From the IMG/VR virus record IMGVR_UViG_2861048470_000001: a stretch of 32,620 nucleotides of DNA. The stretch is one strand, 5' to 3'. Position numbers and translations under genes: made by a program. This document shows, in pieces, positions 3,030-32,570 of this stretch. Numbering within the stretch: the stretch's first letter is position 1; each line of letters opens with the position of its first letter. This DNA is from a virus. Its lineage: Duplodnaviria; Heunggongvirae; Uroviricota; Caudoviricetes. The notes under the pieces are model-generated. The model was given only the letters and a program-made list of their open reading frames with translations. It ran no database searches and had not been told where the DNA came from.

Positions 3030-3253
3030 TGCCGGACAACGTAGATTTTATTCAGGAACAACAGGCTGAATTACTGGAGCGCCAGATTAACGCGGCAAGG
3101 GTAAAACATTGCGGTGCTTCTGCGCTGGTTTGCGAAGAGTGTGACGCGCCAATACCTGCTGCCCGTCGTGCGGCTTACCCGTCAGCCACGCGTTGTGTTT
3201 CCTGTCAGTCAGTCTTTGAAGCAAAAAACAAACATTACCGGAGAACGGCATGA
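3029..3253 (+). CDS. TraR/DksA-family C4 zinc-finger protein (P2 orf82 position)
   Basis: 74 aa with CxxC...CxxC (CEECDAPIP...RCVSCQ), typical of phage TraR/DksA-like zinc-finger proteins. Confidence 0.7.
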   Translation: MPDNVDFIQEQQAELLERQINAARVKHCGASALVCEECDAPIPAARRAAYPSATRCVSCQSVFEAKNKHYRRTA

Positions 3254-3525
3254 GTATTCGTATTGAAATTGGCGAACGTTATGTCGTTACCAGTGACAGC
3301 TTTCAGTTTATTCTCCACGAGAAAAAGAGAGCTGAAAGCGGTAAAAACGCCGGTCAGGAATGGCTGGCGGTGGTTGGTTATTACCCGAAATTAAGCCAGC
3401 TCGTTTCAGGCCTGATGCATCACGATATTCTGACCGGAAGCGCAAAGTCTTTTGCTGATTTAAACGTGCAGGTTGAGCAACTCAGCAAGCGTTGTTCAGA
3501 GGCTTTTGGCTCATATGGCCGTTAA
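3250..3525 (+). CDS. Small early-operon hypothetical protein (P2 orf83 position)
   Basis: 91-aa ORF coupled to the upstream ORF; overlaps the start of A by 11 nt. Confidence 0.5.
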   Translation: MSIRIEIGERYVVTSDSFQFILHEKKRAESGKNAGQEWLAVVGYYPKLSQLVSGLMHHDILTGSAKSFADLNVQVEQLSKRCSEAFGSYGR

Positions 3526-5782
3526 AGCCTCCGGGCGTTTTGTCCCTCCGTCAGCATTTGCCGCAGGCACCGGTAAGGCGCTTACCGGTGCTTATGCATG
3601 GAACGCGCCACGCGAGGCTGTCGGGCGCGAAAGACCCCTTACACGTGACGAGATGCGTCAGGTGCAAGGTGTTTTATCCACGATTAACCGCCTGCCTTAC
3701 TTTTTGCGCTCGCTGTTTACTTCACGCTATGACTACATCCGGCGCAATAAAAGCCCGGTGCACGGGTTTTATTTTCTCACATCCACTTTTCAGCGTCGTT
3801 TATGGCCGCGCATTGAGCGTGTGAATCAGCGCCATGAAATGAACACCGACGCGTCGTTGCTGTTTCTGGCAGAGCGTGACCATTATGCGCGTCTGCCGGG
3901 GATGAATGACAAGGAGCTGAAAAAGTTTGCCGCCCGTATCTCATCGCAGCTTTTCATGATGTATGAGGAACTCTGCGATGCCTGGGTGGATGCGCATGGC
4001 GAAAAAGAATCGCTGTTTACGGATGAGGCGCAGGCTCACCTCTATGGTCATGTTGCTGGCGCTGCACGTGCTTTCAATATTTCCCCTCTCTACTGGAAAA
4101 AATACCGTAAAGGGCAGATGACCACGAGGCAGGCATATTCTGCCATTGCCCGTCTGTTTAACGATGAGTGGTGGACTCATCAGCTTAAAGGCCAGCGTAT
4201 GCGCTGGCATGAAGCGTTACTGATAGCTGTCGGGGAGGTCAATAAAGACCGTTCTCCTTATGCCAGTAAACACGCCATTCGTGATGTGCGTGCGCGCCGC
4301 CAGGCAAATCTGGAATTTCTTAAATCGTGTGACCTTGAAAACAGGGAAACCGGCGAGCGCATCGACCTTATCAGTAAGGTGATGGGCAGTATTTCTAATC
4401 CTGAAATTCGCCGGATGGAGCTGATGAACACCATTGCCGGTATTGAGCGTTACGCCGCCGCAGAGGGTGATGTGGGGATGTTTATCACGCTGACTGCGCC
4501 GTCAAAGTATCACCCGACTCGTCAGGTCAGAAAAGGCGAAAGTAAAACCGTTCAGCTTAATCACGGCTGGAACGATGAGGCATTTAATCCAAAGGATGCG
4601 CAGCGTTATCTCTGCCGCATCTGGAGCCTGATGCGCACGGCATTCAAGGATAATGATTTACAGGTCTACGGTTTGCGTGTCGTCGAGCCACACCACGACG
4701 GAACGCCGCACTGGCATATGATGCTTTTTTGTAATTCGCGCCAGCGTAACCAGATTATCGAAATCATGCGTCGCTATGCGCTCAAAGAGGATGGCGACGA
4801 AAGAGGAGCAGCGCGAAACCGTTTTCAGGCAAAACACCTTAATCGGGGCGGTGCTGCGGGGTATATCGCGAAATACATCTCAAAAAACATCGACGGCTAT
4901 GCACTGGATGGTCAGCTCGATAACGATACCGGCAGACCTCTGAAAGATACTGCCGCGGCTGTTACTGCATGGGCGTCAACGTGGCGCATCCCGCAATTTA
5001 AAACGGTTGGTCTGCCGACAATGGGGGCTTACCGTGAACTACGCAAATTGCCTCGCGGCGTCAGCATTGCTGATGAGTTTGACGAACGCGTCGAGGCTGC
5101 ACGCGCTGCCGCAGACAGTGGCGATTTTGCGTTGTATATCAGTGCGCAGGGTGGGGCAAATGTTCCGCGCGATTGCCAGACTGTCAGAGTCGCCCGTAGC
5201 CCGTCGGATGAAGTTAACGAGTACGAGGAAGAAGTCGAGAGAGTGGTCGGCATTTACGCGCCGCATCTCGGCGCGCGTCATATTCATATCACCAGAACGA
5301 CGGACTGGCGCATTGTGCCGAAAGTTCCGGTCGTTGAGCCTTTGACTTTAAAAAGCGGCATCGCCGCGCCTCGGAGTCCTGTCAATAACTGTGGAAAGCT
5401 CAACGGTGGTGATACTTCGTTACCGGCTCCCACACCTTCTGAGCACGCCGCAGCAGTGCTTAATCTGGTTGATGACGGTGTTATCGAATGGAATGACCCG
5501 GAGGTTGTGAGGGCGCTCAGAAGCGCATTAAAACACGGCCTGAGAAGACCAAACCGTCAGCAAAGAAACGGAAGCCCGTTAAAACCACATGAAATTGCAC
5601 CATCGGCCAGACTGACCCGGTCGGAAAGAATGCAAATCACCCGTATCCGCGTTGACCTTGCTCAGAACGGTATCAGGCCGCAGCGATGGGAGCTTGAGGC
5701 GCTGGCGCGTGGGGCAACAGTAAATTATGACGGGAAAAAATTCACGTATCCGGTCGCTGATGAGTGGCCGGGATTCATATAA
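3515..5782 (+). CDS. A: Replication initiation endonuclease A (rolling-circle HUH Rep)
   Basis: Large ORF with an HUH-type motif (TPHWHMMLF) and downstream tyrosine-rich region (AAGYIAKYISKN). The ATG at 3515 (MAVKAS...) gives about 755 aa, close to P2 gpA; the ORF-track start at 3473 would overlap the previous gene more deeply. Confidence 0.9.
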   Translation: MAVKASGRFVPPSAFAAGTGKALTGAYAWNAPREAVGRERPLTRDEMRQVQGVLSTINRLPYFLRSLFTSRYDYIRRNKSPVHGFYFLTSTFQRRLWPRIERVNQRHEMNTDASLLFLAERDHYARLPGMNDKELKKFAARISSQLFMMYEELCDAWVDAHGEKESLFTDEAQAHLYGHVAGAARAFNISPLYWKKYRKGQMTTRQAYSAIARLFNDEWWTHQLKGQRMRWHEALLIAVGEVNKDRSPYASKHAIRDVRARRQANLEFLKSCDLENRETGERIDLISKVMGSISNPEIRRMELMNTIAGIERYAAAEGDVGMFITLTAPSKYHPTRQVRKGESKTVQLNHGWNDEAFNPKDAQRYLCRIWSLMRTAFKDNDLQVYGLRVVEPHHDGTPHWHMMLFCNSRQRNQIIEIMRRYALKEDGDERGAARNRFQAKHLNRGGAAGYIAKYISKNIDGYALDGQLDNDTGRPLKDTAAAVTAWASTWRIPQFKTVGLPTMGAYRELRKLPRGVSIADEFDERVEAARAAADSGDFALYISAQGGANVPRDCQTVRVARSPSDEVNEYEEEVERVVGIYAPHLGARHIHITRTTDWRIVPKVPVVEPLTLKSGIAAPRSPVNNCGKLNGGDTSLPAPTPSEHAAAVLNLVDDGVIEWNDPEVVRALRSALKHGLRRPNRQQRNGSPLKPHEIAPSARLTRSERMQITRIRVDLAQNGIRPQRWELEALARGATVNYDGKKFTYPVADEWPGFI

Positions 5783-5900
5783 ACTGAAATGAACAGCGTT
5801 GCAAGTGTGATAAAAATCATTATACTGTTTTTATATACAGTACTTTAATCTGGAAAGATGCTATAAATGTATATTTCTATAAAAATATATGGTTTATTGA

Positions 5901-5929
5901 TTGTGTATGCTCACTATCAAATTTATACT
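5901..5929 (+). promoter_or_regulatory. Candidate sigma70 promoter for the accessory module (TTGTGT-17 bp-TATACT)
   Basis: Read by eye in the AT-rich spacer upstream of the 6060 gene. Weak -35, good -10. Not validated. Confidence 0.3.
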
Positions 5930-6059
5930 CCGCGCGCAATGTTGAGTATGCTTAAGATATAGCGTTTACAATTCCAGGCTTGAAGGCTCGGGTATAGGTA
6001 AAAATTGAGTGTTCTCGGTTGCTTTTCGTGACATAAGAGGACAGCAAAGGAGGTTGAGT

Positions 6060-6530
6060 ATGTACAGCCCATTGAACATCGCGAATAAGTTTATAGAACT
6101 TGCTTGCGCGGCTGGTATGCCAATCACCCAGATGCAGGCACAAAAGCTGACCTATATAGCACATGGTATAAATCTGGGTTACAAAGGGACGCCTTTGTTA
6201 ACGACACCAGTTTGTGCATGGCGTTATGGTCCAGTGGTTCCAGTTCTGTATAACTATCTTAAAGTTTATGGCCGTAGTCCCATAACACAACCAATACAAG
6301 TTCCATCGGCAATTTCTCAGGAGTTTGACCCTATGACTGAGCAGTTGCTGCAGAACGTTTATAACGTTTACGGTAAATATACCGCTGAGGATTTATCTGC
6401 TTTCACACATCGTGAAGGTACTCCTTGGAAGCAAGCAATGGATAGTCGTATGGATATCATTCCTGATTCCGTTATTCAGGATTACTATCAAAAGCTGCTA
6501 CACGGCGATAGCAATTGCATCGGACTATGA
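6060..6530 (+). CDS. Panacea-domain (DUF4065, SocA/GepA-like) protein; candidate antitoxin
   Basis: About 156 aa from the ATG at 6060, preceded by AAGGAGG. Sequence KLTYIAHGINLGYKGTPLLTTPVCAWRYGPVVPVLYNYL fits the Panacea pattern as I recall it (K.L.Y.A....G.PL....AW..GPV...Y). AT-rich. Confidence 0.65.
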   Translation: MYSPLNIANKFIELACAAGMPITQMQAQKLTYIAHGINLGYKGTPLLTTPVCAWRYGPVVPVLYNYLKVYGRSPITQPIQVPSAISQEFDPMTEQLLQNVYNVYGKYTAEDLSAFTHREGTPWKQAMDSRMDIIPDSVIQDYYQKLLHGDSNCIGL

Positions 6531-6545
6531 GTCCGAATTAAGATA

Positions 6546-6570
6546 ACCCCGTCTATGTACGGGGTTTTTT
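6546..6570 (+). terminator. Rho-independent terminator-like hairpin plus T6
   Basis: ACCCCGT-ctatgt-ACGGGGT followed by TTTTTT; the next ORF's ATG follows immediately at 6571. Confidence 0.6.
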
Positions 6571-7143
6571 ATGCCTGACGATAATAAGAAAGTGACAGCT
6601 GAATTTGATAAAGACCTTCTCAGACGATTGCAGCAAGCTGAGCAGAATCTGATAACTGCCTCTGCGGCTTTGGGAGATGAGGGCTGTTGGGATGAAGAAT
6701 CTCATGAGCCTGAGTCTGTTGAGGACGCTGTTGATGAAATGCAAAAGGAAGAAGAGGATGCTGCGACCATGCAGCGTTTGGATTTATCCAGTCTTAATTT
6801 TCAAATTGCTGAATTGAGTCGCTGTGTTGAAACTATAAGCACTAACCTTGAAAGCGTACAGGCAGAAACCAAAAGAAAAAATGCGGAAACCGACGGCCTG
6901 CTTACGGACAATGAGCTCCGTAGAACTATGGCTGATAAAACATATCAATTCATGATTGTTTGGTGTTGTTTTGTCGGCTGGGTCATATTTATGTATGTAT
7001 TGAAAAAAGATTTTGATCCACCAGAAACAATTATCATTGCGCTTATGGGAACCACAACTGTGAGTATTGTGGGATTGGTTGGGTTTGTTGTTAGTGGTTT
7101 GTTCAAAAGCAACAATAAACCTTCTGGCGACAATAAAAATTAA
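6571..7143 (+). CDS. Acidic coiled-coil protein with two C-terminal transmembrane helices; candidate membrane toxin/effector partner of the Panacea protein
   Basis: 190-aa ORF; N-terminal half charged and helical (LLRRLQQAEQNL..., EEDAATMQRL...); C-terminal hydrophobic stretches YQFMIVWCCFVGWVIFMYVL and IIIALMGTTTVSIVGLVGFVVSGLF. Start uncertain: an internal in-frame ATG (MQRLDL...) has a GAGGA upstream. Confidence 0.6.
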   Translation: MPDDNKKVTAEFDKDLLRRLQQAEQNLITASAALGDEGCWDEESHEPESVEDAVDEMQKEEEDAATMQRLDLSSLNFQIAELSRCVETISTNLESVQAETKRKNAETDGLLTDNELRRTMADKTYQFMIVWCCFVGWVIFMYVLKKDFDPPETIIIALMGTTTVSIVGLVGFVVSGLFKSNNKPSGDNKN

Positions 7144-7152
7144 TCATCAAAG

Positions 7153-7178
7153 TGGCACCTTTGGGTGCTATTTTTTTG
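7153..7178 (+). terminator. Rho-independent terminator closing the accessory module
   Basis: GCACC-tttg-GGTGC hairpin followed by a T7 run, just after the 7143 stop. Confidence 0.55.
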
Positions 7179-7330
7179 CTTTTTCCGCGATTTCTCTGTT
7201 TTTTCCGTGCATCATTTGGTGCATGAGTTTGAATGTGCTTTAGTCTAGCTCACTTGCTTTCTGCTGCCAATGCTAGCTAGGTTTGACGGTGTTCATGCAA
7301 CTGCATTAAAACCGACCCATGAAGCGGGCG

Positions 7331-7349
7331 GGCGAGGCGGGGAAAGCAC
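7331..7349. other. cos: cos site (19-nt cohesive-end sequence GGCGAGGCGGGGAAAGCAC)
   Basis: Exact 19-mer that I recall as the P2 cohesive end, located between the accessory locus and Q as in P2. Confidence 0.6.
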
Positions 7350-7490
7350 TGCGCGCTGGCGGTGGTGCTGATTTTATTTTTTCAGCGTCTGAGCGCGTCG
7401 TGATGGCGTTTAGATTGTGCGCCGGGGCGTTGGTGTGTCTGCGGGCTGTTTTGTGCGGTGGTGAGCGTGTGAGGGCGTGATGACGGGGGG

Positions 7491-7513
7491 TAAAAAAGCC
7501 GCCCGCAGGCGGC
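7491..7513 (-). terminator. Rho-independent terminator downstream of Q (minus strand)
   Basis: GCCGCC-cgca-GGCGGC hairpin; on the minus strand it is followed by a T-run (plus-strand AAAAAA at 7492-7497). Confidence 0.55.
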
Positions 7514-7518
7514 GATGT

Positions 7519-8553
7519 TCAGCCGTTGTCAGTGTCCAGTGAGTAGTTTTTAAAGCGGATGACCTCCTGACCGAGCCAGCCGTTTATCTCGCGGATCCTG
7601 TCCTGTAACGGGATAAGCTCATTGCGGACAAAGACCTTTGCCACTTTCTCAATATCACCCAGCGACCCGACGTTCTCCGGCTTGCCGCCCATCAACTGAA
7701 AAGGGATGCGGTGCGCGTCCAGCAGGTCTGCGGCGCTGGCTTTTTTGATATTAAAAAAATCGTCCTTCGTTGCCACTTCACTGAGCGGGATAATTTTAAT
7801 GCCGTCGGCTTTCCCTTGCGGGGCATAGAGAAACAGATTTTTAAAGTTGTTGCGGCCTTTCGACTTCACCATGTTTTCGCGGAGCATTTCGATATCGTTG
7901 CGATCCTGCACGGCATCAGTGACGTACATGATGTATCCGGCATGTGCGCCGTTTTCGTAATACTTGCGGCGGAACAGCGTGGCTGACTCATTCAGCCAGG
8001 CAGAGTTAAGGGCGCTGAGATATTCCGGCAGGCCGTACAGCTCCTGATTAATATCCGGCTCCAGCAGATGAAACACGGAGCCGGGCGTGAAAGGTGTCGG
8101 CTCGTTGAAGGACGGCACCCACCAGTAAACATCCTCCTCCACGCCACGGCGGGTATATTTTGCCGGTGAGGTTTCCAGTCTGATGACCTTACCGGTGGTA
8201 CTGTAACGCTTTTCCAGAAACGCATTACCGAACACCAGAAAATCCAGCACAAAGCGGCTGAAATCCTGCTGGGAAAGCCACGGATGCGGGATAAATGTCG
8301 AGGCCAGAATATTACGTTTGACGTAAATCGGTGAGCTGTGATGCACGGCAGCACGCAGGCTTTTTGCCAGACCGGTAAAGCTGATCGGTGGCTCATACCA
8401 TCTGCCGTTACTGATGCACTCGACGTAATCCAGAATGTCACGGCGGTCGAGTACCGGCACCGGCTCACCAAAGGTGAATGCTTCCATTTTCGGGGCGCTG
8501 GCGGTCATTGTTTTTGCCGCAGGTTGCGGTGTTTTCCCTTTTTTCTTGCTCAT
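7519..8553 (-). CDS. Q: Portal protein Q
   Basis: 344-aa ORF, same length and position as P2 gpQ; start overlaps the P stop. Confidence 0.9.
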   Translation of the reverse strand: MSKKKGKTPQPAAKTMTASAPKMEAFTFGEPVPVLDRRDILDYVECISNGRWYEPPISFTGLAKSLRAAVHHSSPIYVKRNILASTFIPHPWLSQQDFSRFVLDFLVFGNAFLEKRYSTTGKVIRLETSPAKYTRRGVEEDVYWWVPSFNEPTPFTPGSVFHLLEPDINQELYGLPEYLSALNSAWLNESATLFRRKYYENGAHAGYIMYVTDAVQDRNDIEMLRENMVKSKGRNNFKNLFLYAPQGKADGIKIIPLSEVATKDDFFNIKKASAADLLDAHRIPFQLMGGKPENVGSLGDIEKVAKVFVRNELIPLQDRIREINGWLGQEVIRFKNYSLDTDNG

Positions 8554-10325
8554 CAGTAAAACTCCAGAATGGTGGATGTCAGCGGGGTGCTGATACCGGC
8601 GGTGAGTGGCTCATTTAACAGGGCGTGCATGGTCGCCCAGGCGAGGTCGGCGTGGCTGGCTTCCTCGCTGCGGTTGGCCTCATAGGTGGCGCTGCGTCCG
8701 CTGCTGGTCATGGTCTTGCGGATAGCCATAAACGAGCTGGTGATGTCGGTGGCGCTGACGTCGTATTCCAGACAGCCACGGCGGATAACGTCTTTTGCCT
8801 TGAGCACCATTGCGGTTTTCATTTCCGGCGTGTAGCGGATATCACGCGCGGCGGGATAGAACGAGCGCACGAGCTGGAACACGCCGACACCGAGGCCGGT
8901 GGCATCAATTCCGATGTATTCGACGTTGTATTTTTCGGTGAGTTTGCGGATGGATTCAGCCTGGGTGGCAAAGTCCATGCCTTTCCACTGGTGACGCTCA
9001 AGTATTCTGAATTTGCCACCGGCCACCACCGGCGGTGCCAGCACCACGCATCCGGCACTGTCGCCACGGTGTGACGGGTCGTAACCAATCCATACCGGGC
9101 GGGAGCCGAACGGATTGGCGGCAAACGGCGCATAGTCTTCCCATTCTTCCAGCGTGTCGACCATGCAGCGTTGCAGCTCCTCGAACGGGAACACCGACGC
9201 CTTGTCGTCAACAAATTCACACATGAACAGGTTTTTAAAATCGTCGGCGCTGTTTTCACGTTTGAGCTGCTCAATGTCGAACAGCGTGCAGCCACCTTTC
9301 AGGGCGTCCTCAATGGTGACAATCTGCCGCCACTGGCCGTCCGCACAGAGAAGCCCCCCGGCAAGGGCGTTATGACTGACGTCGATTTCCACACGTTCGG
9401 CGGCGCTGGCACGTCCCCGGTTGAACAGTTCACCTGACCAGAACGGGTAGGCGTCGTGCGCCAGCGTGGACGGGGTGGAGAAATAGGTCGAGCGCAGGTG
9501 ACTCTGTGAGGCCATACCTGATGCCACCTTACGCAGTACCTGAAAATTCGGGATCCAGAAAATCTCATCGACGTACAGGTCGCCGTTATGGCTCTGCGCG
9601 GTGTTGGAGTTGGTGCCGAGAAAAATCAGTTTTGCGCCGTTATTGCCCAGGACAATCGGGTCACCGGTAAGGTCAACGTCCACCAGACGGGCAAAGGCGA
9701 TGATGTATTCGCGGAACACATACGCCTGCGTTTTACTGGCCGACAGAAAAATCTGGTTATGACCGGTTTTCAGGGCGCGCAGCAGTGCCTCGCGGGAAAA
9801 ATAAAACGTCGCGCCAATCTGGCGGGATTTCAGGATATCGCGGATGCGGTGCTCAAGCCCGGCGCGATACCAGTGCAACTGATAGTCGAAAGACTGCTCA
9901 AAGAAAATCTGCTCCAGCTTTTCGATGGCTTCGTCACTGAAAAAATTCTTTTTCGGTTTGCGACGCCCGCCTTTGTTGCGGTTAGCGACGTTCGGATTAA
10001 GGTCTGCCTCGTTGCCGGTCTGGCTGTAGCGATTTACCCGTGCCAGTCGTTCAATCTGGCGTCCCAGCAGGTCAATTTCCTTGAAGTCACCGCCGGTTTT
10101 CTGCGGTTTGATGATGAGCTGGGTCAGCCGCGCTTCCAGGCTCATTTCGACACGGCTGATGGGGGCAACGCTGTCCCAGCCGTCGCGCTGTTTCCAGCTC
10201 TGCACCGTCGGGCGTTTCATCTGCAACATGGCGGCAATCTGCGGCACGGAAAACCCCTGCCAGTACAGCAGCGCCGCCTGACGACGCGGGTCGTGTAAAA
10301 GAGTGGTGTCTGTGGTGATGGTCAT
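8553..10325 (-). CDS. P: Terminase large (ATPase) subunit P
   Basis: About 590 aa from the internal Met (MTITTD...); transcribed divergently from O, as in P2. Confidence 0.9.
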   Translation of the reverse strand: MTITTDTTLLHDPRRQAALLYWQGFSVPQIAAMLQMKRPTVQSWKQRDGWDSVAPISRVEMSLEARLTQLIIKPQKTGGDFKEIDLLGRQIERLARVNRYSQTGNEADLNPNVANRNKGGRRKPKKNFFSDEAIEKLEQIFFEQSFDYQLHWYRAGLEHRIRDILKSRQIGATFYFSREALLRALKTGHNQIFLSASKTQAYVFREYIIAFARLVDVDLTGDPIVLGNNGAKLIFLGTNSNTAQSHNGDLYVDEIFWIPNFQVLRKVASGMASQSHLRSTYFSTPSTLAHDAYPFWSGELFNRGRASAAERVEIDVSHNALAGGLLCADGQWRQIVTIEDALKGGCTLFDIEQLKRENSADDFKNLFMCEFVDDKASVFPFEELQRCMVDTLEEWEDYAPFAANPFGSRPVWIGYDPSHRGDSAGCVVLAPPVVAGGKFRILERHQWKGMDFATQAESIRKLTEKYNVEYIGIDATGLGVGVFQLVRSFYPAARDIRYTPEMKTAMVLKAKDVIRRGCLEYDVSATDITSSFMAIRKTMTSSGRSATYEANRSEEASHADLAWATMHALLNEPLTAGISTPLTSTILEFY

Positions 10326-16770: not shown

Positions 16771-17556
16771 TTATGAGTGATTTTTATTTGATGCTTTGTA
16801 TTCTAAAACCTTCTTATTGGCGTAAAAGAATTTTGTATATGACAGGAATATAACCAGACCTGAAGTGAAATAGACGAGGGATAGTATTAATAATGCTTTT
16901 TTGTGACTGTTATTATCTTTAATCTCCTGGCTTAACCATTCGGAGTCCTCCTCGTTTAGCTGTAAGAGCTTATTGCAGGCGATTTCAGGAAGTGTGTCTT
17001 TTATAAATACGTTTTGCAGTCTCTTGCAATCGGCAAGGCTATAAGTTTTATTAAATTCAACTGCTTTATTTTTGAAGGATAAAAGAACTTTGTCACTATA
17101 AACATAGTACATCATATTTTTATATGGTATGCCTATGGCATCTCTTACTATAGCGGATTGTTTGTTGTGTATATAACATGCGAAGAGAATATAAATAATA
17201 CTGGCCAGAATTACAATTGTTGTTTTAATTATGTGTGGTGGTTTTGTTATGTCACCCCAGATGCGAGTAAGGAAAAAATACGATGTTTTTAGTTTTCCAT
17301 CAATCAGTCCCTGCTGTATCATTCTCACATTTTCAATGCCTGATACATTGATTCCGTTAATTATTTTAAATAGTTGAATGTCGCGCCACTCGCGGTCAAG
17401 TCTTTTTAATTTTTTGTCTGAATATCCAAAATTGAAATAATGTGCAATAAGCCTCATAAGGTTACTTTTACCAAAGCTAAAAAATGCTAATACTGCAAAG
17501 CTACAAAGGAAAAAAACGATTAGCCCCCACACATTAGTCACATTATAGCTGACCAT
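16771..17556 (-). CDS. Accessory membrane protein with three predicted transmembrane helices, unknown function (P2 orf30 position)
   Basis: 261-aa ORF on the strand opposite to the flanking tail genes; strongly AT-rich; hydrophobic segments near residues 9-28, 120-140 and 225-245; no motif I recognise. Confidence 0.65.
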   Translation of the reverse strand: MVSYNVTNVWGLIVFFLCSFAVLAFFSFGKSNLMRLIAHYFNFGYSDKKLKRLDREWRDIQLFKIINGINVSGIENVRMIQQGLIDGKLKTSYFFLTRIWGDITKPPHIIKTTIVILASIIYILFACYIHNKQSAIVRDAIGIPYKNMMYYVYSDKVLLSFKNKAVEFNKTYSLADCKRLQNVFIKDTLPEIACNKLLQLNEEDSEWLSQEIKDNNSHKKALLILSLVYFTSGLVIFLSYTKFFYANKKVLEYKASNKNHS

Positions 17557-17639
17557 TACGCTCTCCTTGAATGTTGTCTGGTAGTTCTACAAATGAATCC
17601 AGATAGCATAACTTTTATATATTGTGCAATCTCACACGC

Positions 17640-18275
17640 ATGAACACTCTCGCAAATATTCAGGAACTCGCGCGCGCACTGCGCAACATGATTCGCACCG
17701 GCATTATCGTCGAAACCGACCTTAACGCCGGTCGCTGCCGCGTGCAGACCGGCGGCATGTGCACCGACTGGCTTCAGTGGCTGACCCATCGCGCAGGACG
17801 TTCGCGCACATGGTGGGCACCTTCCGTGGGGGAACAGGTGCTGATTCTGGCCGTGGGTGGTGAACTCGACACGGCGTTCGTTCTGCCGGGGATTTATTCC
17901 GGCGATAACCCCTCGCCGTCTGTGTCGGCGGATGCCCTGCATATCCGTTTCCCTGACGGGGCGGTGATTGAATATGAACCCGAAACCAGTGCACTCACGG
18001 TAAGCGGAATTAAAACGGCCAGCGTGACGGCTTCTGATTCTGTTACTGCCACGGTGCCGGTGGTCATGGTGAAAGCATCAACCCGCGTCACCCTGGACAC
18101 CCCGGAGGTGGTCTGCACCAACAGGCTGATTACCGGCACGCTGGAAGTGCAGAAGGGCGGGACGATGCGCGGCAACATTGAACACACCGGCGGTGAACTC
18201 TCATCAAACGGTAAGGTACTGCATACCCATAAACACCCCGGCGACAGCGGCGGCACAACCGGGAGTCCTCTATGA
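17640..18275 (+). CDS. V: Baseplate spike/assembly protein V
   Basis: Starts MNTLANIQELARAL... as I recall for P2 gpV. Confidence 0.9.
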   Translation: MNTLANIQELARALRNMIRTGIIVETDLNAGRCRVQTGGMCTDWLQWLTHRAGRSRTWWAPSVGEQVLILAVGGELDTAFVLPGIYSGDNPSPSVSADALHIRFPDGAVIEYEPETSALTVSGIKTASVTASDSVTATVPVVMVKASTRVTLDTPEVVCTNRLITGTLEVQKGGTMRGNIEHTGGELSSNGKVLHTHKHPGDSGGTTGSPL

Positions 18276-20065: not shown

Positions 20066-22315
20066 ATGAGCACAAAATTCAAAACCGTTATCACTACTGC
20101 CGGTGCAGCAAAGCTGGCAGCGGCAACCGCGCCGGGAGGGCGGAAGGTCAACATTACCACGATGGCCGTCGGGGATGGCGGTGGTAAATTGCCTGTCCCG
20201 GATGCCGGACAGACCGGGCTTATCCACGAAGTCTGGCGACATGCGCTGAACAAAATCAGTCAGGACAAACGAAACAGTAATTATATTATCGCAGAGCTGG
20301 TTATTCCGCCGGAGGTGGGCGGTTTCTGGATGCGTGAGCTTGGCCTGTACGATGATGCTGGAACGTTAATTGCCGTGGCGAACATGGCCGAAAGTTATAA
20401 GCCAGCCCTTGCCGAAGGCTCAGGGCGTTCGCAGACCTGCCGCATGGTCATCATCGTCAGCAGTGTGGCCTCAGTGGAGCTGACCATTGACACCACAACG
20501 GTGATGGCAACGCAGGATTACGTTGATGACAAAATTGCAGAACATGAACAGTCACGACGTCACCCTGACGCCTCGCTGACCGCAAAAGGTTTTACTCAGT
20601 TAAGCAGTGCGACCAACAGCACGTCTGAAACACTGGCTGCAACGCCAAAGGCGGTTAAGGCCGCATATGACCTTGCTAACGGGAAATATACCGCACAGGA
20701 CGCTACCACCGCGCGAAAAGGCCTTGTTCAGCTCAGTAGTGCGACTAACAGCACGTCTGAAACGCTCGCCGCAACGCCGAAAGCGGTAAAGGCAGCATAT
20801 GACCTTGCTAACGGGAAATACACTGCACAGGATGCCACAACAGCGCGAAAAGGCCTTGTTCAGCTCAGTAGCGCCACCAACAGCGATTCTGAAACGCTTG
20901 CGGCAACGCCAAAGGCGGTTAAGACAGCATATGACCTTGCTAACGGGAAATACACTGCACAGGATGCCACCACGGCGCGAAAAGGTCTTGTCCAGCTCAG
21001 TAGCGCCACCAACAGTGATTCTGAAACGCAGGCTGCAACGCCAAAGGCGGTGAAGTCTGCCTATGACAATGCTGAAAAACGTCTTCAGAAAGATCAGAAC
21101 GGTGCGGATATCCCTGATAAAGAACGCTTCCTGAGTAACATTAATGTTTACAGCAAAGGTGAAGTGGATAAGAAAAAGGGAATGCGAAAGTATTCGTTTG
21201 CAGCCCCTGCAAATGTCGTTGCCGGGAAGTGGTACCCCGTTATCTTTCGCCGTGCTGCCAGCCTTTCAGGAGAAATGGCATCCCGCGTTGTTATTTCCAC
21301 TGGTTGTTATAACGGCGATTATGTAATGAATAACTGCGAGTTTAATGGCATGGTTATGCCCGGAGGCTGGACTGATCGTGGTTCATATGCGGCAGGTTAT
21401 TTCTGGACGTATCAGACTAATGAGCGTTCAATCCATTCCATTGTTACAAGCCTGAAAGATGATGATGTATGTAGTGTTTTTTATGTTGAAGCCAGAGCTT
21501 TCCCTGTACAAATTCTTGCAGAGGAAGGGCTAACGGTTATTGTTCCGACAGAGGATTATGTCGTCGGTCAAACGACATATAAGTGGGGGGCAACTAATCC
21601 CGCTACAGAAAGCACGAACGCACAGGCTATTCTGGATTTTAAAAATGGACGTGGTTATTACTGTTCACATCCATTTATTTCCAGCCTTTCAGGAAATGCT
21701 GCAACAGCAACGAAGTTAGCGAACGCAAGAAATATTAATGGTGTCAGATTTGATGGCTCTGCCGATATAAATATTAATACACTGGTATCCAGAAACCGTG
21801 TTAATGCATTAGGTGGGAGCGTAAAGGGGACACCAGGTATTCAGATGTATGAGGCATACAACAATGGCTACCCAACAGCCTATGGTAATGTGCTTCATCT
21901 CACTGGCGTAACCGCAGTAGGAGAGGGTGAGTTACTTATTGGCTGGAGTGGAACCAGCGGTGCTCATGCTCCGGCATATATTCGTTCCCGACGAGATACC
22001 ACAGATGCTAACTGGTCTGGATGGGCGCAACTATATACAACTGCTCATAAACCCTCAGCGGGAGATGTTGGTGCATACACCAAAACTGAGTCAGATTCAC
22101 GTTATGTGAGAGACATGCGGCTGGGCGGTGCATCTACATATAAACCAGCAAATAATGGTACTACATGGACGCATCAGGCTCCGTCAGGTTGCGTATATAC
22201 CGGCATTATTGTTCAGGATACCGGCTCAAACTCTGCCGATAACATTGGTGGCGTATATTACAGACCGGTGCAGAAATACATTAACGGGACATGGTATAAC
22301 GTGGCGCAGGTATAA
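20066..22315 (+). CDS. H: Tail fibre protein H
   Basis: 749 aa; conserved N-terminus; internal tandem phage-fibre repeats; divergent, AT-richer C-terminal region. Confidence 0.9.
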   Translation: MSTKFKTVITTAGAAKLAAATAPGGRKVNITTMAVGDGGGKLPVPDAGQTGLIHEVWRHALNKISQDKRNSNYIIAELVIPPEVGGFWMRELGLYDDAGTLIAVANMAESYKPALAEGSGRSQTCRMVIIVSSVASVELTIDTTTVMATQDYVDDKIAEHEQSRRHPDASLTAKGFTQLSSATNSTSETLAATPKAVKAAYDLANGKYTAQDATTARKGLVQLSSATNSTSETLAATPKAVKAAYDLANGKYTAQDATTARKGLVQLSSATNSDSETLAATPKAVKTAYDLANGKYTAQDATTARKGLVQLSSATNSDSETQAATPKAVKSAYDNAEKRLQKDQNGADIPDKERFLSNINVYSKGEVDKKKGMRKYSFAAPANVVAGKWYPVIFRRAASLSGEMASRVVISTGCYNGDYVMNNCEFNGMVMPGGWTDRGSYAAGYFWTYQTNERSIHSIVTSLKDDDVCSVFYVEARAFPVQILAEEGLTVIVPTEDYVVGQTTYKWGATNPATESTNAQAILDFKNGRGYYCSHPFISSLSGNAATATKLANARNINGVRFDGSADININTLVSRNRVNALGGSVKGTPGIQMYEAYNNGYPTAYGNVLHLTGVTAVGEGELLIGWSGTSGAHAPAYIRSRRDTTDANWSGWAQLYTTAHKPSAGDVGAYTKTESDSRYVRDMRLGGASTYKPANNGTTWTHQAPSGCVYTGIIVQDTGSNSADNIGGVYYRPVQKYINGTWYNVAQV
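20585..21076 (+). repeat. Four tandem copies of a 132-bp (44-aa) repeat inside H
   Basis: Units start at 20585, 20717, 20849 and 20981, each encoding KG(L/F)(V/T)QLSSATNS(T/D)SETLAATPKAVKAAYDLANGKYTAQDATTAR; the fourth is truncated and divergent. Copies differ at synonymous sites. Confidence 0.85.
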
Positions 22316-22318
22316 TTT

Positions 22319-22846
22319 ATGCAGCATTTAAAAAATATTACGGCGGGTAATCCAAAAACGGTTGAACAATATCAATTGACAAAGGACTTTGATGTTGTCT
22401 GGTTTTTTTCAGAAGATGGTAAGAACTGGTACGAAGAACAAAAGTATTTTGCTGATGACACGATAAAAATAGCGTACGACAAAGATAATATCATCCACTA
22501 TGTGGAAAAGGATGTGACAGCTATCAGACCGGATGGATTAAGTGTTGTTGAAGTGGCGGATATTACTGCTAACCGACGGGCGGACATTTCAGGGAACTGG
22601 ATGTTTAAGGACGGCAAAGTGATTAAACGCATTTATACGGCAGAGGAATTACAGCAGCAGGCAGAAATTCGGAAAGCCAGACTTCTTGCAGATGCTGAAT
22701 CCGTGATTTTGCCGCTGGAGCGCGCGGTCAGACTGAACATGGCAACAGATGAGGAGCGTAGCCGACTGGAATCATGGGAACGCTACAGCGTTCTGATCAG
22801 TCGTGTGGATCCTGCAAATCCTGAATGGCCGGAAATGCCGCAATAA
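22319..22846 (+). CDS. G: Tail fibre assembly chaperone G
   Basis: 175 aa (MQHLKNI...[11 protein letters not shown]); conserved Tfa C-terminus. Confidence 0.85.
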
Positions 22847-22907
22847 GTTGTATGAACTCTTGTGTGAGCTTACATACCTATAGAACAGAGTAAAGCCTAA
22901 TCTGACA

Positions 22908-22931
22908 GTCCGCTCTGTGCCAGGAGCGGAC
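22908..22931. repeat. Hairpin at the left edge of the Z/fun-locus cargo
   Basis: GTCCGCTC (22908-22915) / GAGCGGAC (22924-22931) with an 8-nt loop and no T-run; overlaps the motifs AATCTGACAGTC and AGTCCGCTCT that recur on the far side of the cargo gene. Confidence 0.5.
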
Positions 22932-23185
22932 ATAACGACACGTTAGTTAGAAATCTCAAGACCAATTAGGTTGGATACTTACATGTATACTATTGCCTAA
23001 CGATACTACCCTATCAACCTCATGGTTTATAGGCGGGGGTGAGAGCCAATCGAACGCTATCGTACGTTTTTATGCTGTCTACCCTAGACCCCAAGTAGAC
23101 ATGAATCTTACCTGATTTCCATACGAGGGCGACGTTGATCATCCAGCTTTAGTGCGAGCACTGAACTTAACATTTACCAGCAATA

Positions 23186-24232
23186 GTGATATTTTCTACA
23201 AAGAAAAATATATGGAATAACGTCATCGCGGGTACAAAAATGACTATAAAAAAAACATATGTAACACCAACAGAAATAGTGAAATATTTTTATGACAAAC
23301 CGGAAAACGATAACGTAAAAGAGAGAAAAACAATTGAGAGCCTGACCCGTCTCAAACCTGAGTGGGAAAATACTCTCGATATGATGAAGTTAATACGCAA
23401 TTGTGAAAAGCTAGCAACTGAAGGTATTTTAATGGAATTATCTTCAGGACATACTCTTTTGGACCGTTGCTATTTCGCACCGAATTTCAATGAATCAGAT
23501 GCGAAATATGGAAAGTATGATTTTATAGCTGATGGATTTGAGTCAATCATAGACCGCCTTAGTCCTTCCGTTTTACCTGTTGTTGTTGAAAAAAGTGATG
23601 GTTCACATGATCTTGGTACTAGTTTTATTGTTGGGAATAACCACACGATATTTACAGCCAGACATGTTATTGAAGACATGAAGAGTATCAGGATACTTAG
23701 AGCTGGTGGTGAGGCTTTACCAATACATAAAATCTTTGTATCTAACGATGAACGTATTGATATCGCTTTAGTTTTCACAACCATTCCGAATGAAGATAAT
23801 ATTCAACCACTTAAGGTCTCAACCAAAGCCTCGGTACTGGATGAAATTTTATCAATAGGATTTCCACCCATTCCAGGATTTGATGCATTAAAGTTATATG
23901 ACGTTTCGCATATAAATTCGTTTGTCCGACTGTCAAAGGGGCGAATTGTTGGTTCTGGTCACTCTTACTTAGATTCACAAGACTTTTTATTATTCAATGC
24001 TAGGGTTAAGGGGGGGAATAGCGGTGGCCCTATAATTAACAAATACGGCTTTGTTGTTGGTATGCTTGTACAAATACCAATATCATCTGAGGACAGTTCA
24101 AAGATTGATAACCTTGGATATGGTATAGCTGTAACAGGAAAAAGCCTGCTGGATGCCATTACATTTACAGAAAATGGCCGCGAATTAACACTCACCGACC
24201 GAGGAAATGGAGAATATTCAACTCTAGCATAA
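23186..24232 (+). CDS. Trypsin-fold (S1-like) serine protease with an N-terminal domain of unknown function; accessory gene at the Z/fun locus
   Basis: ORF with a His-Asp-Ser triad in chymotrypsin order and spacing: TARHV (His), DIALV (Asp), GGNSGGP (Ser). AT-rich. Start is either GTG at 23186 or ATG at 23240. Confidence 0.7.
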   Translation: MIFSTKKNIWNNVIAGTKMTIKKTYVTPTEIVKYFYDKPENDNVKERKTIESLTRLKPEWENTLDMMKLIRNCEKLATEGILMELSSGHTLLDRCYFAPNFNESDAKYGKYDFIADGFESIIDRLSPSVLPVVVEKSDGSHDLGTSFIVGNNHTIFTARHVIEDMKSIRILRAGGEALPIHKIFVSNDERIDIALVFTTIPNEDNIQPLKVSTKASVLDEILSIGFPPIPGFDALKLYDVSHINSFVRLSKGRIVGSGHSYLDSQDFLLFNARVKGGNSGGPIINKYGFVVGMLVQIPISSEDSSKIDNLGYGIAVTGKSLLDAITFTENGRELTLTDRGNGEYSTLA

Positions 24233-24829
24233 ATGATATTATTAATTAAGTTGTACTAACTCAGTTTAAATGAATCAAGCATCCCCGTAACTTTGCCTGA
24301 AAAGGCTCATCGAGGGATGCACATTGTACGGATGTGTGAAAACTAAATCGGCTTTGTCACTTGGATTCGAGGGGAAAACTGAACTGAAAGCGATAAAAAC
24401 GTCTAAAAAATCGTTTCGCAGACAGATGCACCCGATTCAAGCCATTTTGAGGAAGGCTTTCTGCCTTTTATATTTATATTAATCATAAGCTTATTCCATT
24501 GGTGTACGATATCGTGCTTTGCCCCTCATCTCCCAGATAACTAATTAGCCTTAAAATTACTCATGTGTTTCTGCCGGTTAAAATTATATGGTTTTCATTT
24601 ACAATAGTCTCAAGTCCGCTCTTCGCTCAAAGCAGACTGTCAGATTTGATAGCATTTGGGCTATGTAAATTGTCAGGCGGAAAATGAGTGAGTACAAATC
24701 AGGACAGGCGGGCGAATTGCCCGCATTTTCTTTATCTGTTGTTTCATCCCCTGACCAGCCAGGTCAAATAGCGTCTCATGCACTGCCCAACAGAAAATAG
24801 TTGCACCCATTAACCACGGAGTTAAACGG

Positions 24830-26020
24830 ATGAGTGACTATCATCACGGCGTGCAGGTGCTGGAGATTAACGACGGCACCCGCGTCATTTCCACTGTATC
24901 CACTGCCATTGTCGGCATGGTCTGCACGGCCAGCGATGCGGATGCGGAAACCTTCCCCCTCAATAAACCTGTGCTGATTACCAATGTGCAGAGCGCAATT
25001 GCAAAGGCCGGTAAAAAAGGCACGCTGGCGGCATCGTTGCAGGCCATCGCTGACCAGTCAAAACCGGTCACCGTTGTCGTGCGCGTGGAAGACGGCACCG
25101 GCGACGACGAAGAAACGAAACTTGCGCAGACCGTTTCCAATATCATCGGCACCACCGACGAAAACGGTCAGTACACCGGACTGAAAGCCCTGCTGGCGGC
25201 GGAGTCAGTAACCGGTGTTAAACCGCGTATTCTCGGCGTGCCGGGACTGGACACCAAAGAGGTGGCTGTTGCACTGGCATCAGTCTGTCAGAAGCTGCGC
25301 GCTTTCGGGTATATCAGCGCATGGGGCTGTAAAACCATTTCCGAGGTGAAAGCCTACCGCCAGAATTTCAGCCAGCGTGAGCTGATGGTCATCTGGCCGG
25401 ATTTCCTCGCATGGGATACGGTCAGCAGCACCACCGCCACCGCGTATGCCACCGCCCGTGCGCTGGGGCTGCGTGCTAAAATCGACCAGGAGCAGGGCTG
25501 GCATAAAACGTTGTCCAACGTCGGGGTAAATGGTGTTACCGGCATCAGCGCATCTGTATTCTGGGATTTGCAGGAGTTCGGCACCGATGCTGACCTGCTT
25601 AACGAGTCAGGCGTCACTACGCTGATTCGCCGCGACGGTTTCCGCTTCTGGGGTAACCGTACCTGCTCTGATGACCCGCTGTTCCTCTTTGAAAACTATA
25701 CCCGCACCGCGCAGGTGCTGGCCGACACGATGGCTGAGGCGCACATGTGGGCGGTGGACAAGCCCATCACCGCAACGCTGATTCGCGACATCGTTGACGG
25801 CATCAATGCCAAATTTCGTGAGCTGAAAACAAACGGCTATATCGTGGATGCGACCTGCTGGTTCAGCGAAGAATCCAACGATGCGGAAACCCTCAAGGCC
25901 GGAAAACTGTATATCGACTATGACTATACCCCGGTGCCTCCTCTTGAAAACCTGACCCTGCGCCAGCGTATTACCGATAAATACCTGGCAAATCTGGTCA
26001 CTTCGGTTAACAGCAATTAA
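24830..26020 (+). CDS. FI: Contractile tail sheath protein FI
   Basis: 396 aa; P2 gpFI size and position. Confidence 0.9.
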   Translation: MSDYHHGVQVLEINDGTRVISTVSTAIVGMVCTASDADAETFPLNKPVLITNVQSAIAKAGKKGTLAASLQAIADQSKPVTVVVRVEDGTGDDEETKLAQTVSNIIGTTDENGQYTGLKALLAAESVTGVKPRILGVPGLDTKEVAVALASVCQKLRAFGYISAWGCKTISEVKAYRQNFSQRELMVIWPDFLAWDTVSSTTATAYATARALGLRAKIDQEQGWHKTLSNVGVNGVTGISASVFWDLQEFGTDADLLNESGVTTLIRRDGFRFWGNRTCSDDPLFLFENYTRTAQVLADTMAEAHMWAVDKPITATLIRDIVDGINAKFRELKTNGYIVDATCWFSEESNDAETLKAGKLYIDYDYTPVPPLENLTLRQRITDKYLANLVTSVNSN

Positions 26021-31586: not shown

Positions 31587-31667
31587 ATCCTCAATTTGCC
31601 TGCTGCTTAATGCATTGCAGATGATTTGCTTCCGTTATACTAGCGTCAGTTGATAGCGGGAGTATTT

Positions 31668-32570
31668 ATGAATCAATCTTATGGACGGCTGGTCAGTTGG
31701 GCGGCGATTGCTGCGACGGCGATGGCTTCGTTGCTATTGCTGATTAAAATTTTTGCATGGTGGTATACCGGGTCGGTGAGTATTCTCGCCGCGCTGGTGG
31801 ATTCGCTGGTGGATATCGGCGCGTCGTTGACGAATTTATTGGTGGTGCGATATTCCCTGCAACCTGCCGACGATAATCACTCGTTTGGTCACGGTAAAGC
31901 TGAGTCCCTCGCGGCGCTGGCGCAAAGTATGTTTATCTCCGGTTCGGCACTATTCCTGTTTTTGACGGGTATTCAACATCTGATATCTCCAACACCGATG
32001 ACAGATCCAGGCGTCGGGGTTATCGTGACAATTGTGGCGCTAATTTGTACGATTATCCTTGTCTCGTTTCAGCGTTGGGTGGTGAGGCGGACGCAAAGCC
32101 AGGCGGTGCGGGCTGATATGCTACATTACCAGTCTGATGTTATGATGAACGGCGCAATTCTGCTGGCGCTGGGGTTGTCCTGGTACGGCTGGCATCGCGC
32201 CGATGCTCTGTTTGCATTGGGAATCGGCATCTATATTTTATATAGCGCGTTACGCATGGGATATGAGGCGGTACAGTCATTACTGGATCGCGCATTGCCT
32301 GATGAGGAACGGCAAGAAATTATTGATATCGTGACTTCCTGGCCGGGTGTTAGCGGCGCTCACGATCTTCGCACGCGGCAGTCAGGGCCGACCCGCTTTA
32401 TTCAGATTCATTTGGAAATGGAAGACTCTCTGCCTTTGGTTCAGGCACATATGGTGGCGGATCAGGTAGAGCAGGCTATTTTACGGCGTTTTCCGGGATC
32501 GGATGTAATTATCCATCAGGACCCCTGTTCCGTCGTACCCAGGGAGGGTAAACGGTCTATGCTTTCATAA
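31668..32570 (+). CDS. fieF: Cation-diffusion-facilitator ferrous-iron/zinc efflux transporter FieF (YiiP)
   Basis: About 300 aa from [10 protein letters not shown]...; multiple transmembrane helices and [11 protein letters not shown] motif; matches enterobacterial FieF as I recall it. Confidence 0.9.

Follow-up and report, generated by a model that had tools for sequence, protein, structure and literature searches.

The Z/fun locus of phage P2 is a described hotspot for cargo and defence genes (PMC9122126; PMC13586616). Small intergenic leftovers of recombination are common in the defence loci of P2 and P4, and pseudogene remnants were found there in a large survey (PMC13586616). We analysed a window of 32,620 nucleotides that is a P2-like prophage, in which the late genes H (20066-22315) and G (22319-22846) precede a cargo gene (23240-24232), with FI beginning next, at 24830. 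Between the cargo gene and FI lies a gap, 24233-24829, which the first-pass annotation had described as free of called ORFs. This description holds: no ORF within the gap reaches 60 aa, and the two longest encode 52 aa (24324-24482, plus strand, TTG start) and 45 aa (24673-24810, minus strand).

Composition of the gap between the cargo gene and FI

The gap is located at the Z/fun cargo hotspot, between the tail-fibre assembly gene G and the tail-sheath gene FI. E. coli loci of identical arrangement (99.8% identity over 22700-25000, as in strains 120899, ETEC-2265 and TW10722) are annotated in RefSeq as tail fibre assembly protein, S1 family peptidase and phage tail sheath protein. By comparison of phage records, P2 homology ends at ~22931 and starts again at ~24612; the records cover only the flanks (27% of 22700-25000) and have other genes in between, the variable content characteristic of Z/fun. 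At about 600 bp the gap is unexceptional for this position in P2-like phages: cargo gene and FI are 390 bp apart in P2, 319 bp apart in Wphi and HQ103, and ~260 and ~945 bp apart in P2-EC53 and P2-EC58.

We conclude, with a probability of about 80%, that the gap is an ordinary and mostly explained junction of two non-coding blocks, one derived from the cargo (24233-24612) and one belonging to the P2 backbone (24613-24829; Table 1). Conserved P2 intergenic DNA of an ordinary kind makes up about one third of the gap, and the remainder is non-coding DNA linked to the cargo, in which one structural element is well supported. The first-pass annotation had named alignment as ordinary conserved P2 intergenic sequence among the outcomes that would refute it, and such alignment is found for 24613-24829 only. 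For annotation, the gap can be labelled confidently as cassette 3' tail, right inverted repeat, terminator and PF promoter, and no gene or known RNA need be called within it.

Table 1. Features of the gap and its surroundings; positions refer to the window unless another locus is named.
Feature	Position	Strand	Basis
Left boundary repeat of Z/fun cassette, core hairpin GTCCGCTC-TGTGCCAG-GAGCGGAC	22899-22931	.	partner of right repeat
Predicted sigma-70 promoter of cargo, TTAACA-17-TATTTT, TG before second hexamer	23167-23195	+	consensus scan
Cargo gene, solo S1/Trypsin_2 peptidase, 330 aa	23240-24232	+	PGAP start codon
Non-coding 3' tail of peptidase gene, probably 3' UTR	24233-24425	+	shared with L021
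Two-tier stem-loop, GAAA apical loop, starting 47 nt after stop codon	24279-24320	+	folding
Lineage-specific filler, 127 bp, probably a recombination scar	24426-24552	.	comparison of relatives
Weak intrinsic-terminator-like hairpin, T-rich tail	24451-24475	+	terminator scan
Right-end segment of peptidase cassette, 60 bp	24553-24612	.	shared with other peptidase cassettes
Right inverted repeat of Z/fun, core 24614-24646, then dyad TGTCAGATTTGATAGC-N6-GCTATGTAAATTGTCAG	24613-24703	.	aligns with 'right inverted repeat' of AJ512682/AJ512683
Strong intrinsic terminator, stem 24708-24724, then ATTTTCTTT	24706-24731	+	terminator scan
Ogr/delta-type activator-binding site of PF, TGT(24740)-N12-CCA(24757)	24737-24762	+	alignment to P2 and 186
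Predicted F operon transcription start	24804-24806	+	transferred from P2 (17626-17628) and 186 (14159)
Shine-Dalgarno GGAG and FI ATG (24830)	24818-24832	+	read from sequence; identical in P2, Wphi and 186
Hairpin cores	22909-22930, 24615-24636; L001 7746-7764; L020 122-143, 1587-1608		
Hairpin cores, further	L022 10-31, 46-67; L036 825-846; L007 5062-5083; L033 2562-2583		

Three other regions of the window were recorded in passing. A gene pair at 6009-7143 occupies the other hotspot of P2, which lies between the genes for replication and portal; one has a SocA/Panacea antitoxin domain (E = 1.9e-17) and its neighbour a weak DUF2975 match, and the pair is probably a PanA-type toxin-antitoxin cargo. 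Two overlapping ORFs of 261 and 128 aa, on the minus strand of the rightward late-gene block (16771-17942) and with no Pfam match, may mark a third site of inserted cargo, here within the tail genes. The cation-efflux (FieF-like) gene at the right end (31650-32570) is probably host chromosome flanking the prophage.

The peptidase cassette and its non-coding 3' tail

The cargo protein matches Pfam Trypsin_2 (E = 1.7e-17), with Trypsin domains its only Pfam matches, and is annotated in RefSeq as an S1 family peptidase. Its PADLOC match (RT-Protease_XI) covers only the protease domain, residues 115-279, and the protein resembles the protease modules of known defence systems at domain level only; it belongs to phrog_18002, a family of unknown function. 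The gene is AT-rich and is the sole ORF between the boundary repeats. A retron is not indicated, as there is neither a reverse transcriptase domain (Pfam Trypsin only) nor a second ORF between the repeats. The peptidase cargo was absent from all complete phage records searched, and scanning species-representative genomes twice, first using a single sequence as query and then an alignment, brought up no relatives; peptidase relatives of 80-88% protein identity were taken from assemblies for comparison of the tail.

Because the peptidase gene reads rightwards and ends at 24232, its promoter is expected upstream and not in the gap, which lies on the gene's 3' side. A promoter is predicted at the expected place, and nucleotide homology with the distant cassettes L005 and L006 starts just upstream of it, at 23157-23160. 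The earlier suggestion that the gap might hold the control region for the cargo is not supported by this arrangement, and we consider a promoter or operator there, controlling the gene, to be very improbable. Two plus-strand pairs of promoter-like hexamers do occur in the gap (24447-24474 and 24578-24605), but they face away from the gene, toward the boundary repeat and terminator; promoter-like sites in 22700-24900 exceed shuffle expectation modestly (11 found versus 6.2 +/- 2.2), and in the L007 and L032 equivalents of 24578-24605 the second position of the -10 hexamer is without its conserved A. An RNA of ~120 nt running from the promoter-like site at 24578-24605 to the strong terminator (24612-24731) was also considered and rejected: its -10 is not conserved in L007 and L032, and the repeat region that it would include shows no covariation.

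The sequence downstream of the stop codon is shared to different extents by different relatives, as far as 24425 in L021, 24319 in L005, 24282 in L020 and 24269 in L006, and from this graded sharing we divide the tail into three parts: 24233-24425, 24426-24552 and 24553-24612. All three are found together in E. coli. Of 5426 complete E. coli genomes, 40 have the stretch 24233-24613; its identity is never below 99%, no feature is annotated beneath it, and it is absent from phage and plasmid records; those matches that were examined all carry the peptidase too. The block 24233-24612 would thus have arrived with the cargo.

The first part, 24233-24425, differs from its counterpart in L021, whose protein is 88% identical, by 18 mismatches and 1 gap in 193 nt, and is ancestral to at least two lineages. 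This is a divergence of 9.8%, compared with 14.5% at third codon positions and a pS of 0.205 for the gene (binomial P = 0.036 and 6e-5, respectively). We read the slower divergence as a sign either of mild constraint or of a recombination tract of more recent date.

Within this part lies a stable stem-loop (-20.5 kcal/mol, z = -3.75; none of 200 shuffled sequences was as stable). The first-pass annotation had noticed its GCATCCC/GGGATGC arms and placed them near 24288-24330; the hairpin is real, but the arms pair 24280-24286 with 24314-24320. Across the window, L021 and L005, 94.9% of cells are paired, against 23-49% in slid controls, and three pairs are altered on both sides. As only three sequences contribute and 36 of 500 shuffles reach the covariation score, we treat the covariation as suggestive. 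A scan of viral contigs with a degenerate pattern recovered the same E. coli cassette only. The first hairpin after the stop codon, 24245-24270, was dropped as a candidate; it is a perfect 13-bp stem in L006, though here it folds at -1.9 kcal/mol (z = +0.3).

The most economical reading of 24233-24425 is that it would be the 3' UTR of the peptidase mRNA, in which the stem-loop would protect or define the mRNA 3' end. The intact cassettes of L007, L033, L032 and L022 do without the tail, and the gene as such can therefore dispense with it. The conserved stem-loop is a cheap target for testing effects on expression of an uncharacterised and possibly defensive solo protease.

The conserved tail, from 24233 to ~24475, could alternatively yield a functional small RNA, either processed from the 3' UTR or independent of it, that regulates or acts with the peptidase, for instance as the RNA antitoxin or sensor in a defence system of one gene. 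The stability of the stem-loop, pairing that is kept through two-sided changes, and the slower divergence of 24233-24425 relative to third codon positions all fit this possibility, and the terminator-like sequence at 24451-24475 could supply a defined 3' end. Family members in other genera also have 150-1000 nt of non-coding DNA downstream, and a Pseudomonas homologue keeps 235 nt in two contexts. But there is no plus-strand promoter-like site within 24233-24446, the full 248-nt stretch folds unremarkably (z = -1.5), and the tail is wholly missing from the intact cassettes named above, whose peptidases are 80-83% identical to that of the window. Downstream regions of the distant homologues L040-L043 have no detectable similarity to the gap. 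In a global alignment to the gap the downstream region of L006 scored no better than shuffles.

Searches for known RNA classes point the same way. A permissive covariance-model scan of 22700-25000 with Rfam 15 returned nothing in 24233-24829 at E <= 10, and nothing in the whole window reached the gathering score, so that a known structured RNA is not supported; ARAGORN found no tRNA or tmRNA in the window. Tandem repeats of the kind found in ToxI-like type III antitoxins are absent, Tandem Repeats Finder giving no result in 22800-24900, where there are only short two-copy direct repeats. We therefore consider a small RNA rather unlikely and keep to a 3' UTR as the reading of the conserved tail.

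The Pseudomonas homologue (54% protein identity; L042 and L043, 3494-3730) was found in two neighbourhoods, one of them beside HEPN_AbiU2 and DUF4238 genes. After its stop codon it has the same 235 nt of non-coding DNA in both (95% identical), with repeated GACATTGGATCG and TGTCA..TGACA motifs.

The second part of the tail, the filler at 24426-24552, is absent from L021, where an R-type boundary core (see below) follows the conserved tail directly. Its only occurrences are in the 40 cassette-bearing E. coli genomes, with no match in phage or plasmid records and none among protein clusters. We take it to be probably a recombination scar, as a default explanation. It contains the second hairpin of the first-pass annotation, AAGGC-tttct-GCCTT, which is present at 24453-24467 as described and is weak (-8.4 kcal/mol, z = -1.6, with 11 of 200 shuffles as good). 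The sequence around it, 24451-24475, fits the pattern of an intrinsic terminator weakly, and terminator-like sites in 22700-24900 are at chance level (3 found, 1.7 +/- 1.3 expected). It is most likely the 3' end of the cargo transcript, as a prediction; lying in the filler, this weak terminator would end transcription of the cargo.

Part of the gap, mainly 24320-24552, might instead be what is left of a decayed second cargo gene or of an earlier cassette. In favour of this, 24426-24552 has no counterpart in the closest relative, L021, and small intergenic pseudogene remnants are common in P2/P4 defence loci (PMC13586616); there is also a weak 22-nt similarity between 24458-24479 and 24568-24589. 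This internal repeat is not significant, however (E = 0.11), and no nucleotide match extends beyond this cassette in phage, plasmid or E. coli collections. Six-frame fragments of 24225-24625, with all stop-free fragments of at least 14 aa joined as one query, had no match at E <= 10 in 5.8 billion protein clusters, and the decayed gene proposed by the first-pass annotation is not supported. A remnant eroded beyond recognition would still be compatible with this search, and we judge a decayed gene unlikely; a scar remains our preferred explanation of the filler.

The third part is the right end of the cassette. Window 24552-24650 is ~77% identical to the sequence directly after the stop codon in L007, L008, L009 and L033; L032 has a similar segment after its stop codon by eye, with no blastn match. 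In L007, L033 and L032 the stop codon runs straight into the equivalent of 24553.

The P2 backbone, terminator and late promoter

The right 217 bp of the gap (24613-24829) are conserved P2 backbone, and the block is present in most P2-like coliphages irrespective of their cargo. In phage records, similarity to the gap begins no earlier than ~24612-24619 and runs at 90-96% identity. In the phage database the matches start in steps, at 24612, ~24703, 24739 and 24804, which coincide with the proposed modules; as these stepwise starts are found in more distant P2-like phages, we regard the backbone as modular.

The first of the downstream modules is a strong intrinsic terminator (-14.7 kcal/mol, z = -3.2; none of 200 shuffled sequences was as stable) that has the stem and tract expected of this class and aligns with the annotated t45 of phage 186. 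The predicted terminator would stop read-through from the G operon and the cargo, shielding the F operon, and would keep the tail operon silent in the lysogen.

The second is the late promoter PF, which the first-pass annotation had expected inside the gap and which is found there by alignment to annotated P2 and 186. The activator site aligns with NC_001895 17555-17583, annotated as 'activator binding site; activation of pF promoter'; in phage 186 its aligned counterpart is the pJ site of the B protein. Its half-sites, TGT at 24740-24742 and CCA at 24755-24757, form the activator dyad, centred ~56 nt upstream of the predicted start, which itself lies 24-26 nt before the FI ATG. The textbook form of the dyad is TGT-N12-ACA. 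A search for this perfect form upstream of 24830, as first proposed, comes up empty near FI, since the window, P2 and 186 all read TGT-N12-CCA, and it is this form that is present; perfect dyads number 5 in the window, against 8.9 expected by chance. Transcription from 24804-24806 would be Ogr-dependent, by analogy of sequence with P2 and 186, and Ogr-activated PF would drive FI-FII-E-T-U-D.

A further suggestion was that the gap encodes a small unannotated protein. ORFs do exist in the sequence, the candidates being 52 aa (24324-24482), 40 aa (24565-24687) and 38 aa (24684-24800) on the plus strand and 45 aa (24673-24810) on the minus strand. Some phage records list the 45-aa minus ORF as a hypothetical protein, and it has a match to phrog_11095; the 38-aa ORF is open in P2 as 31 aa. 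But the 52-aa ORF is broken in L021 by a stop at codon 4 and a frameshift (1-nt deletion). The minus ORF is a single 76-aa frame in P2 that is split over two frames here, and it is absent from the curated annotations of P2, Wphi and 186. The strong terminator (24708-24731) lies inside the 38-aa ORF, which closes before the PF start is reached and is therefore left uncovered by the predicted transcripts. No plus-strand ORF has a match in PHROG or in the 5.8 billion clusters. We consider a small protein very improbable and read 24613-24829 as non-coding backbone.

Boundary repeats, cassette movement and comparison with known systems

Annotated inverted repeats flank the cargo, as at Z/fun. A repeat finder pairs 22899-22931 with 24614-24646 (33 nt, 85% complementary). 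The left repeat aligns with the 'left inverted repeat' of GenBank AJ512682/AJ512683, which ends at window 22931, and its core folds as a stable hairpin (-17.3 kcal/mol, z = -3.7); the right core is unstable here as a lone hairpin (z = -0.6). Most P2-like phages start matching at 24612-24619, and the right inverted repeat marks the right border of the exchangeable Z/fun cassette. Beyond its core, the ~65 bp of non-coding DNA at 24640-24705, with TGTCAGATTTGATAGC-N6-GCTATGTAAATTGTCAG, are near-invariant and show no compensatory change among six P2-like sequences (the comparison including P2, Wphi, HQ103, EC53 and EC58). Being invariant in sequence and without covariation, this segment is neutral on the question of an RNA and fits a DNA site; its conservation suggests a protein-binding DNA site.

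The complete G-cargo-FI arrangement occurs in 12 E. coli genomes. In the other E. coli genomes listed, the block from window 22912 to ~24637-24643 is matched without P2 flanks. One of these, L001 (NZ_CP053723.1), has the cassette (22912-24643) in the thrW/proA island (tRNA-Thr), among DUF2971, DUF4236 and other genes. The decayed island there (3138-9261) also contains a tail-fibre-assembly gene fragment and hypothetical genes; farther on come a reverse transcriptase, integrase fragments and, ahead of them, an IS3 element. The whole has the look of one-time P2 Z-region cargo in an array.

The same two hairpin cores border the peptidase cassette in at least 6 unrelated genomic contexts. They are of two types, an L-type, TCYGCT..TGTGCCA..AGCGGA, and an R-type, TCYGYT..CGCTCAAAGC.GA. 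Homology breakpoints between contexts lie inside the cores, at 22902-22912 on the left and 24637-24650 on the right. L022 has an R-type core with an L-type core 14 nt beyond it, like the junction of two cassettes. Together, the position of the breakpoints and the L022 junction suggest, at the level of sequence comparison, that cassettes are exchanged at core sites.

A bolder proposal would combine these observations with those on the tail: that the L-type and R-type cores are sites of dedicated cassette exchange, serving the P2 Z locus, islands linked to tRNA or tmRNA genes and other elements, and that the structured tail is an RNA controlling the solo protease. We hold this combination to be quite improbable. 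If it were true, the non-coding DNA around the peptidase would be functional mobile-element machinery and not spacer. The wider interest of the locus is modest, and lies in the same peptidase cassette and non-coding tail recurring in unrelated contexts with breakpoints inside short hairpin cores; it is a convenient case for asking how P2 Z/fun cargo is exchanged.

Among known systems, cassettes bounded by imperfect palindromic, hairpin-forming sites, two of which abut core to core in L022, are reminiscent of integron attC sites, in what would be a resemblance only. The window cassette differs from an integron cassette in having its own promoter and a core at both ends, and no integron integrase was noticed by inspection. 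The core sequences seem unlike the R'/R'' boxes of attC. A closer likeness is to the remnants in P2/P4 hotspots (PMC13586616), where homology-free non-coding DNA lies beside swapped cargo, and the window cassette also occurs in the thrW/proA cryptic island. In contrast to such remnants, 24233-24425 is conserved with its gene across lineages and carries a structured element, and the non-coding DNA of the window is for this reason not all scar.

The right side of the gap corresponds to P2 PF and to 186 pJ with t45: terminator, activator site, start and Shine-Dalgarno sequence have the same order and spacing. The differences are a few substitutions, and the stretch from activator site to -10 is nearer to Wphi than to P2. 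The cassette as a whole compares best with the 'proviral Z-region' records AJ512676-AJ512685, which are said to come from Nilsson, Karlsson and Haggard-Ljungquist 2004; these occupy the same position between G and FI, and their flanking repeats are 90-92% (left) and 87-92% (right) identical to those of the window. More generally, the locus shares with the Z/fun region of P2-like coliphages the same ~216 bp conserved block before FI and a single foreign AT-rich gene with its own promoter; it differs in that its cargo is an S1/Trypsin_2 peptidase, and in a non-coding 3' tail of 380 bp, as against ~45-105 bp in EC53 and Wphi.
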